Shown: in pieces, positions 1,932 through 28,680 of the stretch
Numbering within the stretch: the first letter of the stretch is position 1
Layout: the number at the start of each line of letters is the position of its first letter
Assembly (NCBI GenBank): GCA_963704755.1
Contig: OY969938.1
Span: forward strand, 1,950,001 to 1,982,000
DNA from: an uncultured Chloroflexia bacterium
GTDB taxonomy: Bacteria; Chloroflexota; Anaerolineae; Anaerolineales; Anaerolineaceae
Direction: 5' to 3'
Length of the DNA: 32,000 bases
Position numbers and translations under genes: made by a program
Notes under the pieces: model-generated
Database searches by the model: none
What the model was told of the DNA's origin: nothing
Seen by the model: only the letters and a program-made list of their open reading frames with translations

Positions 1932-1984
1932 ACGAATTTGATGTGGTTGCCGGGGCAAAGCCCCGGCAACCACATCAAATTCGT
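1932..1984 (-). terminator. 25-bp perfect stem, 3-nt loop; likely Rho-independent terminator for the minus-strand DUF362 gene; member of the CGAATTTGA hairpin family
   Basis: ACGAATTTGATGTGGTTGCCGGGGC-AAA-GCCCCGGCAACCACATCAAATTCGT. The plus strand has an A-rich run at 1916-1931, which is a T-run after the hairpin on the minus strand. Confidence 0.6.
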
Positions 1985-2064: not shown

Positions 2065-3228
2065 CTATTTGGCCGGAATATAGTCCATCGACATGCGCTC
2101 GATTTTTTCGACCGGCAGCACATCCACCAGCTCGTAATCCCGCGAGCCCAATCCCAGGCCCTCGGCGTACTCGACCACTTTATAGGGGTCCTTCATCTGG
2201 CCATGCAGCCAGCTCAGCGGATGGCCTTCGCGCGAGTTGATTTCCATGCCGGTTGGCACGTTTTCCTCGATGATCGCGTGCTCGGCCAGCTTGTCCAGCA
2301 CGGCCTGGTCGATGGCCACGATATCATCCGAGCCGAAGATACCGACATCCGGCAGGATGGACATGCCGGTGAAACCGAAGCAGTCGCACAGCGGGGTGAC
2401 CATGGTGGCCAGCACCAGGTTGGTGACTTTGCCGGGCTCGAAGGTGGAAAGGCTCACGCTGGTGCTGATTGCGCAGGCTTCCTGGAACGAGTGGAAGTTG
2501 ACCGGGTCGATCTTCAGGCTGCCGGCCGGGGCGACCTGCAGGCAGCGGCCGCACTGGTTGCACTGCTCGAAATGCAGGTGCAGGTTGCCCGGGTTTTCCT
2601 TGTCCTCGACGATAGCCTCGAACGGGCAGACTTCCATGATCCGTTTCAAGGTCTCTTTATCGGTGCACTTTTCCGGGAACCAGTAGGGATCGTAGTGCAT
2701 GGTGTCGTGCATCTGGCCGCGCGTGCGGCCCGACATGCAGCCCAAGGCCAGGTTCTTGAAAGCGCCGCCGTAAGAGCAGGAGGGGTGGCCCTTGGCGTGG
2801 GCGAAATTGATCAGGAAGGTCGCGTCCTCGACAAACCCGCCGACTTCCCAATCCTGGATACCCTTGTAAGGTTTGTGGTGCTTGTACACGTAGCGGTTGG
2901 TCGGACCGGCCATGGGATAAACCGGGCAGCCCAGGGTTTCCTGGCTGTACCCGCGCGCTTCTGAGGCGGCCACATCCCATTCCACATCGATAATATAAGG
3001 TTTGCCGCCGCCATCCTTGACCGCCTGGATCACTTTACGCAGGAAAACCGGATGGATGGTGGAATAGCTCAAATTATTGCCCAGGTGCATTTTCAGCGCC
3101 ACGATCTCGTCCTTGACCCGCTCGCGAATGTGGAGTTGGTCGATAATCAGATCAAGCTTCGCCGGCAGCGTCTCTTTCGCGTCCCAGCGTGCCTGACGGG
3201 GTGAACCATAGAAAACTTTACTTGCCAT
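2065..3228 (-). CDS. DUF362 domain protein with an inserted ferredoxin-type 4Fe-4S motif
   Basis: 387-aa ORF. FAHAKGHPSCSYGGAFKNLALGCM resembles the DUF362 core. Cys motifs EVCPFEAI and CNQCGRCLQVAP are present. ATG at 3228 with an AAGGA upstream. Confidence 0.75.
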   Translation of the reverse strand: MASKVFYGSPRQARWDAKETLPAKLDLIIDQLHIRERVKDEIVALKMHLGNNLSYSTIHPVFLRKVIQAVKDGGGKPYIIDVEWDVAASEARGYSQETLGCPVYPMAGPTNRYVYKHHKPYKGIQDWEVGGFVEDATFLINFAHAKGHPSCSYGGAFKNLALGCMSGRTRGQMHDTMHYDPYWFPEKCTDKETLKRIMEVCPFEAIVEDKENPGNLHLHFEQCNQCGRCLQVAPAGSLKIDPVNFHSFQEACAISTSVSLSTFEPGKVTNLVLATMVTPLCDCFGFTGMSILPDVGIFGSDDIVAIDQAVLDKLAEHAIIEENVPTGMEINSREGHPLSWLHGQMKDPYKVVEYAEGLGLGSRDYELVDVLPVEKIERMSMDYIPAK

Positions 3229-3261
3229 AGGTAGATCCTTTCAAATATTCAGATAATTGTT

Positions 3262-3371
3262 GTTACTACTCAAGCCGGTTCGGAAATTAGGGGTGTTTTA
3301 TTATTTTTCGTGTGCTTCACACACGAAAAATAATAAAACACCCCGCTTTTTTGCGATAGCTGAGTAATTTC
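3262..3371. repeat. Composite palindromic element: degenerate outer box pair bracketing a 25-bp perfect hairpin (3290-3344)
   Basis: Inner hairpin GGGGTGTTTTATTATTTTTCGTGTG-CTTCA-CACACGAAAAATAATAAAACACCCC, followed by GCTTTTTTGCG. Outer arms GTTACTACTCAAG (3262-3274) and CTGAGTAATTTC (3360-3371) are degenerate copies of the CTGAGYAGTTAC box. Confidence 0.65.
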
Positions 3372-3664
3372 TAATTGTTCGTGATTCTCTCTAAAAAGTA
3401 ATCCGGCTTGTGGTATAGGCCTCCAACACTTCGAATTTGGGCCATTTTTTGGATTTAATCCAGGCAGAAAGGATTCCGGCCGGCCCAAACAGGCGGCATT
3501 GGGCCACAGAATGGGGAAAAACTATTTTATTGATCAGCACAAATAAGGAAGACAGCCGACCCTGTCCGGCTATAGGACGATTCTATCCCATCCGGCGTAG
3601 GTGTCAATCGGCCGGGCAGCTAAAAGGCGGCCTGGCGGATTTATTTAACCTGTTGATAATAGAA

Positions 3665-4432: not shown

Positions 4433-4596
4433 ACATTAGCCTCAGGGCGATTGCAGCCTGCCTGCATTTCGAGGGCAATTCCCCAAAGAGTGGGTTTTTG
4501 AGGGTTATTGTGGGGCGTAGCCCCACAATAACCCTCAAAAATATCTCTTTGTTGGGACTAAATTGGCATGATGCGATTGCCCTGACATTAGCCTCA
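4433..4596 (+). mobile_element. MITE-like non-autonomous element, copy A (140-bp core 4445-4584 plus 12-bp direct repeats)
   Basis: Flanking direct repeat ACATTAGCCTCA at 4433-4444 and 4585-4596. Imperfect terminal inverted repeat GGGCGATTGC...GCGATTGCCC. Central 22-bp perfect hairpin 4495-4541. 133/140 identical to copy B at 24629-24768. Confidence 0.7.
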
Positions 4597-7108: not shown

Positions 7109-7135
7109 AAGATGCTCCTGTTGAATCAGAATTCG

Positions 7136-7264
7136 GTAATGCTCAGCCTCACGGCTTAGAGCCTAGAATTAGAGGACTCATTAAAATGTGTCTGAGCAGT
7201 TACCCAGATTTTGAACCATACAAATATCGTAACTACTCATCCTCTACAGTGGCTGAGTAGTTAC
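7136..7264. repeat. Cluster of four CTGAGYAGTTAC boxes forming two small inverted-repeat units
   Basis: GTAATGCTCAGCC (7136-7148) pairs with CTGAGCAGTTAC (7192-7203). GTAACTACTCA (7229-7239) pairs with TGAGTAGTTAC (7254-7264) across a 14-nt spacer. Confidence 0.7.
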
Positions 7265-7464
7265 CAAATATCTTAGATTTTAACCCTGATTGTGACGGTC
7301 TGGCCTTCTCAGGAAAAATATTGTCTAGTTGCCAGGAGAAAGCCATGTAACAAGAACTGGCGCAGCTAAAAGAACCTAAAACTTTCAATGTTAAATATTT
7401 CATTTATAATATTTCAGATAGAGATTATAGTTAATAGAAACCGTTCCATCAAAGGGGTAAGAAA

Positions 7465-7516
7465 CCGAATTTGAGGTGTGTGGTGGGCACAGCCTACGCA
7501 TCCACCTCAAATTTGG
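7465..7516. repeat. Decayed member of the CGAATTTGAG hairpin family
   Basis: AATTTGAGGTG (7468-7478) pairs with CACCTCAAATT (7503-7513). The inner part is no longer palindromic. The left flank GGGTAAGAAACCGAATTTGAG resembles the reverse complement of the right flank of the 28562 copy. Confidence 0.6.
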
Positions 7517-12515: not shown

Positions 12516-12579
12516 ATTGAACTAGCGGAATTTGTATAAATTCCGCTAGTTCAATTGGATGAATTTATACAAATTCCGC
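12516..12579. repeat. 18-bp perfect hairpin plus a third arm able to form an alternative 19-bp helix
   Basis: ATTGAACTAGCGGAATTT-GTAT-AAATTCCGCTAGTTCAAT (12516-12555). 12561-12579 (GAATTTATACAAATTCCGC) is the exact reverse complement of 12525-12543. Confidence 0.7.
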
Positions 12580-12622: not shown

Positions 12623-13294
12623 ATGGAGCTCAATCGAAAATTCTGGAATGAACGGCAGCAGGCCCTGCGTCTGGCGCTGCGCGACCCGGCGGACCACCCG
12701 CAGGCGGTCGCGTTGTTCCTCGACCAGCACGCCATGGTCCACACGGCCGGTATGGCACAGTCCGGGTTGTGGTCCTTCGAGGACGAAGTCTGGCAGGGGC
12801 TGGACGAAGCCGCCGCACGCCAGGTACCGCCTAAACTGGAGCATTCCGTCGCCTGGACTACCTTCCACCTGGCCCGCATCGAGGATGTAACCATGAACCT
12901 GCTGCTGGTCGGCAGCCCACAGGTTTTCCGGCAGAGCGGCTGGATGGATCGATTGGGGATCCGCCTGGCGCATACCGGCAACGGCATGGACGAGCCGGCG
13001 GTCAGCGACTTTAGCGAGCAGGTGCATCTGGCTGCCCTGCGCGCCTACCGCCTGGCGGTAGGGCAGCGCACCCGCGAGATTGTCGGCCAAATCGACGCGC
13101 AAGCGCTGCGCCAAAAAGTTCAGCCGGCCCGCCTGCAACGGGTCCTGGACGAAGGGGCACTGGTCGAGGAAGCCCGCGGCCTGCTGGATTACTGGGGCGG
13201 GCTGACCGGCGCCGGCTTGCTGCTGATGCCGCCCACACGCCACAATTTCGTCCACCTCAACGAGGCATTGCGGATCTTAAAAAAGATGAAATAA
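12623..13294 (+). CDS. DinB-family (DinB_2-like) protein
   Basis: HSVAWTTFHLARIEDV is a typical DinB-fold helix with a His ligand. GAGGGG lies 6 nt upstream of the ATG. Confidence 0.7.
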   Translation: MELNRKFWNERQQALRLALRDPADHPQAVALFLDQHAMVHTAGMAQSGLWSFEDEVWQGLDEAAARQVPPKLEHSVAWTTFHLARIEDVTMNLLLVGSPQVFRQSGWMDRLGIRLAHTGNGMDEPAVSDFSEQVHLAALRAYRLAVGQRTREIVGQIDAQALRQKVQPARLQRVLDEGALVEEARGLLDYWGGLTGAGLLLMPPTRHNFVHLNEALRILKKMK

Positions 13295-13336
13295 ACGTTT
13301 TGGTGCGACATAGGCGCACCAAAACGTTTATTTCAT
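13286..13336 (+). repeat. 22-bp perfect stem hairpin overlapping the DinB stop codon
   Basis: ATGAAATAAACGTTTTGGTGCG-ACATAGG-CGCACCAAAACGTTTATTTCAT. No T-run follows, so terminator function is uncertain. Confidence 0.6.
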
Positions 13337-13357
13337 CCGGTTGGTGCTTGACTCCAA

Positions 13358-13403
13358 TAAATAAACAGTGTATATTTATATATAAATATACACTGTTTAT
13401 TTA
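13358..13403. repeat. 46-bp perfect loop-less AT-rich palindrome
   Basis: TAAATAAACAGTGTATATTTATA|TATAAATATACACTGTTTATTTA; the 23-bp arms were checked base by base. Confidence 0.85.
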
Positions 13404-13430
13404 AAAACCGCATAACCCAACGGAATAGAA

Positions 13431-13487
13431 TCTCGAAATTGAGGTGTTTGCAGGGACTTCGTCCCTGCAAACACCTCAATTTCGAGA
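13431..13487. repeat. 27-bp perfect stem, TTC loop: CGAAATTGAG hairpin family member
   Basis: TCTCGAAATTGAGGTGTTTGCAGGGAC-TTC-GTCCCTGCAAACACCTCAATTTCGAGA. Ends 49 nt upstream of the TetR start. Confidence 0.85.
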
Positions 13488-13535
13488 ACTTCTTAAAATA
13501 CGCCTGAGTTGGCGCGTTTATTGATTGGAGTAACC

Positions 13536-14234
13536 ATGTCCCGACCGAAACGCTCACAGCAAATCCCAAACCTGCCGGAGGTCATCAAAGAGACCGCCTG
13601 GAAGCAGATCGCCGAATACGGCGCGCCGTCGCTGTCTTTACGCGCCATCGCCCGCGAGCTGGGCCTTACGGCCCCCTCCATCTACCGCTACTATCCCAGC
13701 CGGGATGACCTCGTCACGGCCATGATCGTGGACGCTTACCACGCATTGGGCGAAACGCAGCGCGCGGCCGCGGCCAGCCTGCCTGCCGATGCGCTGGCCG
13801 AACGGTTCCGGAGGCTCGGCCTGGCCTACCGTGAATGGGCCATCGGTCACCCGCAGTGGTACCAGCTCATTTTCGGTACGCCCATTCCGGGCTACCAGGC
13901 CCCCGAAGACATAACTGTCCCGGCCGCGGCCTGGTCCCTGCAGCCGCTCATTGAAAACATCTCAGAACTGTCCGCTTCCGGCAAGCTGCGTTTGGAAGAT
14001 CTGGCCCCGCTCACCCCCCGGCTCGAAGGGATGCTGGCCGATTGGCTGGCCTTTACTGGCGATGCCGAGGTCGAGGTCCTTTACCTGGCCCTGGTCGTGT
14101 GGAGCCGGGTCCACGGGCTGGTCTCGCTCGAAATTGGCCAGCAAATGCCTTCTTTTATTAACGATCCCGCCGAGGTTTATCTGCGGGAAATTAACCACAT
14201 GTCCCGCCATTACCTGGCGGGGGAGAACGAATAA
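13536..14234 (+). CDS. TetR/AcrR family transcriptional regulator
   Basis: N-terminal HTH LSLRAIARELGLTAPSIYRYYPSRDDL. GGAG lies 5 nt upstream of the ATG at 13536. Confidence 0.85.
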   Translation: MSRPKRSQQIPNLPEVIKETAWKQIAEYGAPSLSLRAIARELGLTAPSIYRYYPSRDDLVTAMIVDAYHALGETQRAAAASLPADALAERFRRLGLAYREWAIGHPQWYQLIFGTPIPGYQAPEDITVPAAAWSLQPLIENISELSASGKLRLEDLAPLTPRLEGMLADWLAFTGDAEVEVLYLALVVWSRVHGLVSLEIGQQMPSFINDPAEVYLREINHMSRHYLAGENE

Positions 14235-23508: not shown

Positions 23509-23540
23509 GGTGTACAGCCAAAACGTTTTGGCTGTACACC
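23509..23540. promoter_or_regulatory. 32-bp perfect palindrome with a LacI-type core CCAAAACGTTTTGG (candidate operator O1); second copy of the 14-mer at 23550-23563
   Basis: GGTGTACAGCCAAAACGTTTTGGCTGTACACC. The AAACGTTT centre fits the general LacI/GalR operator pattern (CG at the dyad). Confidence 0.55.
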
Positions 23541-23541
23541 T

Positions 23542-23570
23542 ATAATATACCAAAACGTTTTGGGAGTCAA
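23542..23570 (-). promoter_or_regulatory. Sigma-70-type promoter for the LacI gene and probably the sugar operon
   Basis: The minus strand reads TTGACT (23570-23565), a 17-nt spacer CCCAAAACGTTTTGGTA, then TATTAT (23547-23542). The spacer contains the 14-bp operator-like palindrome. Confidence 0.6.
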
Positions 23571-24616: not shown

Positions 24617-24780
24617 CTGTTAACGCCAGGGCGATTGCAGCCTGCCTGCTTTTCGAGGGCAATTCCCCAAAGAATGGGTTTTTGAGTGTTATTGTGGGGC
24701 GTAGCCCCACAATAACACTCAAAATTATCTCTCTGTTGGGGCTAAATTGGCATGATGCGATTGCCCTGCTGTTAACGCCA
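24617..24780 (+). mobile_element. MITE-like element, copy B (140-bp core 24629-24768 plus 12-bp direct repeats)
   Basis: Direct repeat CTGTTAACGCCA at 24617-24628 and 24769-24780. Same termini and central hairpin (24680-24724) as copy A. Confidence 0.7.
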
Positions 24781-24781
24781 A

Positions 24782-24835
24782 CGGGTTATGCGGTATTTTT
24801 GGCCGGCGCGCCGGCCAAAAATACCGCATAACCCG
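24782..24835. repeat. 54-bp perfect loop-less palindrome (27-bp arms)
   Basis: CGGGTTATGCGGTATTTTTGGCCGGCG|CGCCGGCCAAAAATACCGCATAACCCG. A solo 12-mer ACCGCATAACCC also occurs at about 13407-13418. Confidence 0.85.
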
Positions 24836-26327: not shown

Positions 26328-26723
26328 TAGGATGCCGTAGCACAGGATTGTGGAAAAATTATTCTTTAAAAAATTGAAAATTGGCTCAAAAAAGGGGATT
26401 GTCTTGTCTTTGATGCTTCTGAAAAAAAGAGGCAGTTCTGTTCTTGACCATTGGAATACTCAAGTTTCTCGGACTGGAAATTTATTTTGGAAAGGCTCGG
26501 CTTCTGGTAACAAGGGAATAAGAAGCAATTTGATGGCAGGTTCCCGCAAATAATGCCCATCTATCCCCAAAAGCCCTTGGAAAACATTCTATCACATCCT
26601 CGAAAGTGGGTTGTAATGAAAGAAAGGGGCTCAGTGGACCCTCACCACGGCAAATCCCCAAAACCCAAAAAAGGCGACTGCTCAGCCGTCGCAGCATCAG
26701 AACTTGCTTGAGCAGCTACAAAA

Positions 26724-26760
26724 GGAGGTCGAAGCGCCACGTTGCAGCGCTTCGACCTCC
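26724..26760 (-). terminator. Probable Rho-independent terminator of pdxST
   Basis: GGAGGTCGAAGCGC-9 nt-GCGCTTCGACCTCC (14-bp stem), followed on the minus strand by TTTTG. Confidence 0.55.
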
Positions 26761-28281: not shown

Positions 28282-28494
28282 TTTCCTCTCCGGTTAGCTG
28301 TAATAAGAGTTTCGGGATACCTGCTCATGCTTGCGAATAATAGCATCGTTTGAGATATCCACGGGAACTTAACACCGCTAAACACCTCAAACGATGGTTT
28401 GTGATTAAGTCACTAAAATTCCATCCATACGACACTTCTAATTTTACCCTTTAACCTCTAAATTTGAATTGGATTCTTTTGAAAACCGCTCAAT

Positions 28495-28523: not shown

Positions 28524-28534
28524 AAGTTAAGAAA

Positions 28535-28645
28535 TAACTACTCAGGCTCCTATCAAAGATTCCCCGAATTTGAGATGTTTGCGAGGGCTTCGCCCTCGCA
28601 AACATCTCAAATTCGGGGTTCTTACCCGTTTGGCTGAGCAGTTAC
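28535..28645. repeat. Composite element: CTGAGYAGTTAC box pair bracketing a 27-bp perfect hairpin (28562-28618) of the CGAATTTGAG family
   Basis: TAACTACTCAG (28535-28545) ... CCCCGAATTTGAGATGTTTGCGAGGGC-TTC-GCCCTCGCAAACATCTCAAATTCGGGG ... CTGAGCAGTTAC (28634-28645). Confidence 0.85.
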
Positions 28646-28680
28646 GTTAAGAGAAAATCAAACCGGGTTCCGCCATCGCA

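Follow-up and report, generated by a model that had tools for sequence, protein, structure and literature searches.

Bacterial MITEs such as Correia/NEMIS of Neisseria, ERIC, MITEAba12, and the Coxiella MITEs are short, non-coding elements with terminal inverted repeats (TIRs) and a target-site duplication of fixed length. They reach high copy numbers, lie in intergenic DNA, can fold into a long hairpin, and occasionally lie in a UTR or serve as a terminator. The Anaerolineae repeat family described here resembles them in all these respects and differs in its center, a perfect palindrome of 25–27 bp that covaries between copies and flips its loop. We know of no report of such a covarying, loop-flipping perfect core in a bacterial MITE. 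Two reverse-complement configurations also occur in the ITRs of the parvovirus AAV, where flip and flop hairpins are found at about equal frequency through Rep-mediated hairpin transfer at the ends of a linear single-stranded DNA genome; the MITE hairpins, in contrast, are internal chromosomal palindromes. A parallel to the outcomes seen in the core is provided by quasipalindrome correction (Ripley model; E. coli hotspots; PMC8794818, PMC5453318), in which one arm serves as template for the other in a single event, with perfect stems, compensatory substitutions, mirrored multi-base changes and indels, and loop inversion as the products. That process has been deduced from individual reporter sites or from scarce events on rRNA and miRNA trees, whereas the Anaerolineae MITE offers hundreds of near-neutral replicates per genome, in which all of these outcomes appear at an apparently high rate and the mechanism is read from sequence. 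Chloroplast flip-flop inversions are similar in that a loop between short inverted repeats recurrently inverts among close relatives, homoplasiously and with unchanged fold energy (PMC6824564). They differ in that they occupy single-copy plastid spacers, with loops of at least 4 nt and stems of ~9–30 bp, while the present element is a bacterial, multi-copy transposon whose 3-nt loop is too short for ordinary arm recombination.

The window (the whole stretch of DNA analyzed, 32 kb) had been annotated in a first pass as carrying three perfect hairpins of 25, 27, and 27 bp with two decayed relatives (Table 1, copies A to E). An inverted-repeat scan of the window located the same three hairpins, and direct comparison of their arms agreed with the reported homology: the left arms differed at 7 of 27 positions between copies B and C and at 6–7 of 25 between A and C (6 had been given), and all of these differences were mirrored in the opposite arm. 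The arm core CGAAWTTGAKRTGKTTGC had eight matches in the window at up to three mismatches, against 0.28 expected. Folded as DNA, the perfect hairpins had energies between −33.6 and −44.5 kcal/mol, and their z-scores relative to shuffled sequences lay between −13 and −16. A search of the window against Rfam 15 returned no match at gathering thresholds, and at E-value thresholds only generic long-hairpin miRNA-precursor models were hit (37.5 bits, with 200 needed).

Table 1. Copies of the repeat family and their derivatives in the 32-kb window.
Feature	Coordinates	Strand	Description
Copy A	1932..1984	.	Core only, outer arms decayed; nhmmer score 38.2
Copy A core hairpin	1932-1984, arms 1932-1956/1960-1984	.	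25 bp, 100% complementary, loop AAA
Same-ends MITE with different core	3262..3371	.	Ends GTTACTACTCAA ... CTGAGTAATTTC
Core-less relative	7135-7203		69 bp
Core-less derivative	7229..7264	.	36 bp; both terminal repeats plus 12 nt
Copy D, decayed core	7465..7516	.	nhmmer score 32.7; fold z = -4.1
Copy B, MITE insertion with degenerate ends	13404..13516	.	113 bp; nhmmer match, empty orthologous sites
Copy B 8-bp duplication	13396-13403 / 13517-13524		TTTATTTA / TTTATTGA
Copy B core hairpin	13431-13487, arms 13431-13457/13461-13487	.	27 bp, 100% complementary, loop TTC
Copy E, doubtful relative	28344..28396	.	11-bp basal stem CATCGTTTGAG/CTCAAACGATG, interior unrelated
Copy C, complete MITE	28534..28645	.	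112 bp; nhmmer score 71.7, model positions 4-115
Copy C terminal inverted repeats	28534-28545, 28634-28645		ATAACTACTCAG, CTGAGCAGTTAC
Copy C 8-bp target-site duplication	28526-28533 / 28646-28653		GTTAAGAA / GTTAAGAG
Copy C core hairpin	28562-28618, arms 28562-28588/28592-28618	.	27 bp, 100% complementary, loop TTC

Homology to copy C extended ~27 nt past the hairpin on both sides. In a 115-column profile alignment, the element reads GTAACTGCTCAG, X arm (GGCCCCTGTGAAAAAGACC), core arm, 3-nt loop, core arm, Y′ arm (GCAACTTTCTTTGCATGGC), and CTGAGCAGTTAC; the X and Y′ arms are related yet differ in a consistent way, so the element has a polarity. The whole unit is non-coding and ~111 bp long (108–112 bp between ends), with a core hairpin of 25–27 bp around the loop and conserved TIRs of 12–14 bp (GTAACTGCTCAG...CTGAGCAGTTAC), for which the window contained 14 matches against 3.2 expected. 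It is bordered by 8-bp direct repeats that differ at every locus (e.g., AGGGATTT, GACTCCTC, GCTGATGC, and CCTGGATC) and are perfect in at least 15 copies. Among 96 non-redundant full-length copies, the two repeats were identical in 43 and differed at one or two positions in 30 more; within the window, such duplications were present at copies B and C and at the elements at 3262–3371 and 7229–7264. Since each full copy carries TIRs and a locus-specific 8-bp duplication, the element qualifies as a MITE, and we are highly confident that the hairpins are the cores of this MITE rather than free-standing elements. The broader statement, that a DDE-type MITE carries a palindromic core kept perfect by fold-back template switching, is held with clearly less assurance, although we consider it probable.

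The family was collected in two scans. The first covered 185,579 species-representative genomes with a pattern of 10 fixed bases per arm; no constraint was placed on three mid-stem positions or on the apex, loop, and outer stem. Among the matches listed, at least 82 loci were found, at least about 65 of them in the Anaerolineaceae MAG CTOTU25342 and the remainder in Anaerolinea and other Chloroflexota MAGs. Approximately 12 matches in unrelated taxa (Pseudomonas, Ruminococcus, and others) were without the element's arms and were rejected as chance palindromes. The second scan, of metagenomes, raised the collection to 283 copies in 1.34 Mb of DNA fetched from Anaerolineae genomes and metagenomes. 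The fetched loci came from genomes other than that of the window, which is a single contig of 4.87 Mb. No relative of the window genome at ≥90% protein identity was present in the protein collection. Our literature search found no paper combining Anaerolineae with MITEs and, as far as could be found, the family is undescribed.

Comparison of related loci indicated that copy B is an insertion. It was missing from the syntenic DinB-TetR-epimerase loci L084 and L085, whose TetR is 77% identical, and also at the conserved operator palindrome before the TetR ortholog of L087 (67% identical; upstream gene different). At all three empty sites, the target TTTATTTA was present once, whereas the window has 113 extra bases (13404–13516). 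The sequence of copy B was identical in an independent Logan assembly, the sole other assembly of the TetR locus. The insertion separates a putative TetR operator/promoter palindrome from the TetR start codon at 13536 and lies downstream of a promoter-like site at 13348–13376. A palindrome with 23-bp arms was conserved directly before the TetR start in the TetR-ortholog loci, overlaps the promoter-like site, and is probably the TetR operator. The perfect palindrome at 13358–13403 was rejected as a further family member; it is conserved before TetR orthologs and probably serves as the operator.

The remaining copies in the window were in various states of preservation. Copy A is flanked by convergent genes (707–1927 on the plus strand and 2065–3228 on the minus strand), and AGTTAC at 1996–2001 is a possible remnant of its right end. 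The two relatives that had been described as decayed fared differently: the one at 7465–7516 (copy D) was matched by nhmmer and keeps a 14-bp basal stem, with apex pairing no longer clean, whereas the one at 28344–28396 (copy E) was not matched by the family profile and is doubtful. The element at 3262–3371 carries its own perfect 25-bp core hairpin (3290–3344, loop CTTCA) inside an 8-bp duplication, TAATTGTT, at 3254–3261 and 3372–3379. The 36-bp derivative at 7229–7264 is enclosed by a perfect 8-bp duplication, CAAATATC, at 7221–7228 and 7265–7272. Altogether, the window holds five canonical cores and four derivatives. The first-pass annotation had missed the MITE context with its TIRs and 8-bp duplications, as well as the further derivatives and a second MITE family in the window.

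The anatomy of the element suggests that it would be mobilized in trans by a DDE-type transposase making 8-bp staggered cuts. IS66 insertion sequences likewise have GTAA-starting terminal repeats, with the consensus GTAAGCG, and an 8-bp target duplication (PMC11946415). The MITE TIR starts GTAACTG, with only GTAA in common with that consensus; the GTAA start and the 8-bp duplication would point to the IS66 family, as a partial match. A search of the 1.34 Mb of related DNA for a parent element gave no TIR pair 0.6–4 kb apart enclosing a gene. A wider search (TIR pairs 0.6–6 kb apart, and solo TIRs beside genes) returned only combinations of MITEs and core-less derivatives, and among 1.3 Mb of related DNA no IS66-type element or transposase with the MITE ends was detected. 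Derivatives that lack the core but have intact duplications suggest that the ends suffice for the transposase, so the core is probably cargo and not a requirement for transposition.

We also considered that the repeats are REP/REPIN-type elements spread by a RAYT, an HUH tyrosine transposase that recognizes a single-stranded hairpin. REPINs are similarly dispersed, intergenic hairpin palindromes in which compensatory changes are common, and they rely on a RAYT present in single copy (PMC3116915). The Anaerolineae element differs in its clear 8-bp duplications and TIRs, in the retention of duplications by derivatives that consist of TIRs without a core, and in that no RAYT gene was seen in the DNA examined, which is part of the genome. 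To our knowledge, neither REP/REPIN nor IS200-type elements have TIRs or make target-site duplications. The REP/RAYT interpretation was rejected because of the target-site duplications, and we regard it as hardly credible.

Compensation between the arms was evident across the family and exceeds what chance and shared ancestry would produce. In 110 distinct cores, all 25 stem pairs had changed on both sides. Cells changed on both sides numbered 183 (30.7±4.3 in shuffles) and further pair types 58 (34.5 in shuffles). None of 500 shuffles equaled the observed covariation on any of five measures. Paired cells made up 96% of the alignment and fell to 24–43% when the partner column was slid by one to three positions. 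The search pattern accounts for part of the conservation in mid-stem, and the 32 copies found solely by their proximity to a pattern match behaved alike, with 79 compensated cells. The homology of the copies and the reality of the compensation, as first proposed, were thus borne out. The proposed compensation of all arm substitutions held for the three perfect hairpins of the window, but in the family as a whole it is only a strong tendency: among 217 distinct copies, 112 were perfect over 25 pairs and the others had one to eight broken pairs, with 326 compensated cells against 229 broken ones. Transversion-type compensated pairs were frequent (G-C to T-A or C-G, and T-A to A-T), which excludes a route via G·U for these changes. 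Indels were mirrored as well, for example in L023:816 and in the TTTTGAGTG subfamily. Elements with the same TIRs had different yet perfect cores (the window element at 3262–3371, L187, and L202), and symmetric core deletions were found in L057:4686, L032:4438, and L008:695, showing that hairpin-associated rearrangement readily affects the DNA palindrome.

Two explanations had been offered for the perfect stems, namely selection on the helix and regeneration of one arm from the other. Under the first, a functional RNA or DNA helix (a terminator, a transcript stabilizer, or a 5′-UTR regulator) would evolve by two-step compensation, with mismatches purged. The great stability of the stems is in keeping with such a function, as is the conservation of the core consensus across species, and the consensus has TCTTTTTC right after the stem on one strand. 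Broken-pair counts were also over-dispersed, with the 112 perfect copies exceeding the 75.5 expected from a Poisson distribution. On its minus strand, copy A consists of a hairpin followed by TTCGTTTTTT and is terminator-like; by the criteria for an intrinsic terminator (a G+C-rich stem with an adjoining T-run at a gene 3′ end), copy A qualifies on that strand, whereas copies B and C do not. Copies B and C lie between promoter-like sites and start codons, and are probably in 5′ UTRs. Copies lie 38–63 nt from the start codons of PNPOx, TetR, histidine kinase, and pdxS, within the range of 38–115 nt given earlier.

The family-wide distribution did not follow this pattern. Among 191 classifiable copies, 121 were in tandem, 37 in divergent, and 33 in convergent spacers, proportional to the availability of each spacer type; these copies showed no enrichment at 3′ ends. 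Element orientation was unbiased with respect to transcription (45:32, P = 0.17). Insertion is into intergenic DNA regardless of gene ends. A role in the 5′ leader, or an insertion preference for it, had been proposed in the first-pass annotation, which also named a random distribution relative to genes among the outcomes that would speak against its reading. That random distribution is what the tabulation of positions gave, with copy A between convergent genes as an example from the window, and the leader proposal is not upheld. Broken pairs were G·T or T·G in 64 cases and A·C or C·A in 66, which indicates no G·U tolerance and speaks against selection on a helix. Such selection would further require a fitness effect for each of more than 100 dispersed copies per genome in the face of neither strand nor gene-end bias, and the frequent transversion-type double changes and mirrored indels are poorly accommodated by it. 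The core-less derivatives with intact duplications argue that the core is dispensable for transposition, and loop inversion is not predicted. Helix selection therefore fits worse than arm regeneration, and we judge it unlikely.

The target-site duplication provides an internal clock for stem maintenance because, like the stem, it starts as a perfect sequence pair. In the same copies, mismatches were present at 7–19% of duplication positions but at only 3.5–3.9% of stem pairs, stem breakage being two to five times rarer. Copies with three to five mismatches in the duplication had merely 0.2–1.3 broken pairs, and the number of broken pairs per copy remained at ~1 over flank divergences from 0.13 to 0.32. 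In near-identical orthologs, the mutation rate of the arms (0.29%) was close to that of the flanks (0.39%), and arm changes mostly created mismatches. Given that mismatches arise at a normal rate and do not build up with age, they appear to be removed later.

Read in the frame from the X arm to the Y′ arm, the loop triplets included GAA (39) and TTC (31), GGA (16) and TCC (7), TTG (10) and CAA (6), CTG (7) and CAG (4), and TTT (5) and AAA (4). Each triplet is thus paired with its reverse complement at a comparable frequency relative to the asymmetric outer arms. The loop state was uncorrelated with relatedness, being shared by 40 of 68 nearest neighbors (33.8±4.6 by permutation), and the closest paralogs, L008 and L022, had opposite loops while differing at one of 108 other columns. 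Of 48 orthologous pairs that had diverged by 0.39%, at least five differed by a full 3-nt inversion, against 0.56 loop point differences expected; the orientations were read from short-read assemblies, which cannot resolve them where k is ~30 or less. In L014 and L037, which represent two species (89% identical) and come from independent studies using different assemblers, a GAA/TTC loop inversion was accompanied by one compensated pair, with the remaining stem identical; this was the sole pair recovered when orthologs below 97.5% identity were sought. A mismatch at the loop-closing pair often occurred alongside flips, and three flips had an extra base change there. A site-specific invertase was rejected as the agent of the flips, as a 3-nt segment between 27-bp arms would not be invertible by synapsis of the repeats.

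The flip-flop by itself might be an artefact that arose when de Bruijn-graph assemblers traversed a perfect inverted repeat, as both loop orientations give the same canonical k-mers at k ~30 or less, most loci come from short-read metagenome assemblies, and the MAG may share its sample with the Ga0066793 contigs or come from a sibling sample. The final k, however, is usually at least 55, and contig names show k87 and k141. In all six flipped pairs, the 55-nt contexts adjacent to the loop were locus-specific, making a collapse of paralogs at k = 55 unlikely. An inversion introduced by an assembler cannot create base changes in the loop-closing pair such as those of the three flips, nor does it readily account for L014 and L037, with their differences in species, study, and assembler. 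Moreover, neither orientation could have been assembled unless the reads contained the loop in each orientation relative to the asymmetric arms. An assembly artefact is accordingly a slim prospect.

We propose that the core folds back in single-stranded DNA at the replication fork and that short template switches within the hairpin copy one arm from the other. Under such arm-from-arm copying, a new mutation in one arm would be either erased or mirrored, so that the stem would stay perfect while its sequence drifts. A switch spanning the tip would replace the loop by its reverse complement, giving the flip-flop, and the symmetric core deletions would be a destructive outcome of the same hairpin; effects on neighboring genes would be incidental. 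Template switching is known to yield compensatory changes and loop inversions (PMC8794818), and the footprint set out in that work was found here in compensated changes, mirrored indels, and loop inversion, orthologs included, from which the process itself is deduced. Arm regeneration is preferred because of the flip-flop, the mirrored indels, the absence of G·U tolerance and of strand bias, and the independence of stem perfection from age. As a mechanism for the perfect stems, template switching is in our estimate moderately likely.

Concerted evolution by ectopic gene conversion could give a similar picture, as a palindromic donor can align either way and would then homogenize the arms and flip the loop. 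The copies are many and their cores nearly identical and better conserved than the flanks; compensated variants recur with different flanks (e.g., GATGTG/CACATC and GAGATG/CATCTC), and the loops occur as reverse-complement pairs, all of which such conversion would explain. The window copies, in contrast, are unique, with 6–7 differences per arm, and yet perfect, whereas conversion would have homogenized them, and elements with the same TIRs but unrelated cores are equally perfect. A homology of 50 bp is also short for RecA-dependent conversion. The first origin of any compensated variant would in addition need an inverted tract from arm to arm, which is the copying step of template switching itself. 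We consider gene conversion an improbable explanation of the stems.

Several observations constrain the template-switch mechanism. The X and Y′ arms are consistently asymmetric and never homogenized, so copying would have to halt where the perfect core ends, which counts against the mechanism. The core consensus was identical across species despite different outer arms (L012, L014, and L037), and the arms changed more slowly than the flanks when compared over flank divergence, suggesting a sequence-level constraint beyond template switching. The decayed copies (D, E, and the tail of copies with up to eight broken pairs) likewise count against it. The unhomogenized X and Y′ arms, the conserved core, and the closing-pair mismatches leave room for such a constraint, for conversion between copies, or for a process in the life cycle of the element.

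In the last case, the flip-flop and perfect stems would be part of the life cycle and not a by-product of replication errors. The element could pass through a fold-back single-stranded or hairpin-ended intermediate, with the second arm re-synthesized at each transposition or repair. Alternatively, a dedicated enzyme could process the hairpin of the conserved core, much as hairpins are transferred in parvoviruses. The idea, to which we assign little probability, is compatible with the opposite loops of the near-identical paralogs L008 and L022, with a core sequence that is conserved between species, and with the occurrence of this core within differing outer arms.

It has long been asked whether stems that stay perfect while their sequence changes reflect selection acting through deleterious intermediates or templated mutation in one step. 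To this question the MITE family brings hundreds of replicate hairpins in each genome, which are largely neutral and have built-in controls: the duplications serve as an age clock, and the asymmetric outer arms mark orientation. Mismatches appear at the background rate without accumulating, and loop inversion is far faster than base substitution, such that template-switch rates would be directly measurable by population sequencing or a simple reporter. As a MITE the element is of an ordinary kind; the dynamics of its core appear to illustrate templated hairpin maintenance in nature with unusual clarity, the mechanism being deduced from the patterns described above. In repeats of this kind, covariation by itself should not be taken to indicate a functional RNA, and the elements are a hazard for short-read assembly and alignment-based phylogeny. 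Insertions in the intervals between promoter and start codon, as before the TetR and histidine kinase genes, may alter expression.

The core pair adjoining the loop (columns 27/31 of alignment A4) was the position most often mismatched, with 12 T·G mismatches and 10 of other kinds among 110 cores, and it was mismatched in three of the five orthologous flips (GTTTCGC, GTGAAGC, GATTCGC), in which the 3-nt loop is replaced by its reverse complement between orthologous loci. These loop-closing mismatches could be the signature of errors at the switch point of fold-back template switching, the proposed cause of the flips, or else could reflect a systematic error in sequencing the tip of the hairpin.

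Mirrored change was also observed outside the MITE. The half-sites of a perfect palindrome upstream of TetR (table) differ between TetR orthologs in mirrored fashion (CAGTG/CACTG, CGGTG/CACCG, CACTG/CAGTG), which shows that the MITE cores are not alone in changing this way. Because a promoter-like TTGACT-17-TATATT overlaps this palindrome and its position directly upstream of TetR orthologs is conserved, it is probably the TetR operator.

Hairpins, palindromes and related elements (window coordinates unless a fetched locus, L, is named)
Feature	Coordinates	Remarks
Palindrome at TetR	13358-13403; L084 2444-2488; L087 2329-2376 (both TetR-ortholog loci without the MITE insertion)	perfect, 23-bp arms; immediately 5' of TetR orthologs, conserved
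Second MITE family	4444-4583; 24628-24767	140 bp each; ends AGGGCGATTGC.../...GCGATTGCCCT
Central hairpins of second family	4495-4541; 24680-24724	21-22 bp, loop GTA
Loop-less palindrome	24782-24835	54 nt, perfect
Other cores between terminal repeats like those of the studied MITE	L187 ~85; L202 2310-2415; L124 3087; L172 150; L156 ~1900	
41-nt core with different outer arms	L012 4651-4691; L014 4581-4621; L037 37-77	
Motif CCAAAACGTTTTGG or half	13285-13337; 23509-23540; 23550-23563	
Intergenic perfect hairpins	2004-2044; 12516-12555	19 bp; 18 bp
Stretch between diverged terminal repeats	26674-26719	46 nt
Terminator-like hairpin	26724-26760	adjoins the 46-nt stretch

The window also carries a separate MITE family, unrelated to the studied ~111-bp element; its target-site duplications are 12 bp long (AACATTAGCCTC/GACATTAGCCTC and GCTGTTAACGCC). 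A perfect hairpin forms the centre here too, and the hairpins of the two copies are one compensated change apart (G-C to T-A). Directly beside one copy lies the loop-less palindrome (CGGGTTATGCGGTATTTTTGGCCGGCG followed by CGCCGGCC...).

Elements at five loci have the terminal repeats of the studied MITE but enclose alternative cores, including GGTGTGCATGTGGGGCG-CAC-..., tandem CACCCCCACACTTCGGGGGT units and GGGGTGCGGGGTGTTTGTGGGTG. GGTGT opens all of the cores, whose fastest-evolving part seems to be the apex. In other Anaerolineae species, the identical 41-nt core lies inside different outer arms (CCTAAAATTATTGGGGAGGTTTGC ... GCTTCCCTTTCGATTTTTAGG); it thus acts like a module that element types have in common.

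About a dozen perfect stems of at least 18 bp occur in the window, making the intergenic DNA of this genome unusually rich in them. The 19-bp intergenic hairpin shares with the studied cores both the apex GGGC-NNN-GCCC and the TTTGAGGT base. Two other long perfect hairpins contain CCAAAACGTTTTGG, a palindromic motif, or half of it; the motif occurs once again 20 nt away and could represent a binding site or a further repeat family. The 46-nt stretch, beside the terminator-like hairpin, lies between diverged copies of the studied MITE's terminal repeats (GCGACTGCTCAG ... CTTGAGCAGCTAC); no clear target-site duplication surrounds it, and it is possibly another core-less remnant of this MITE.
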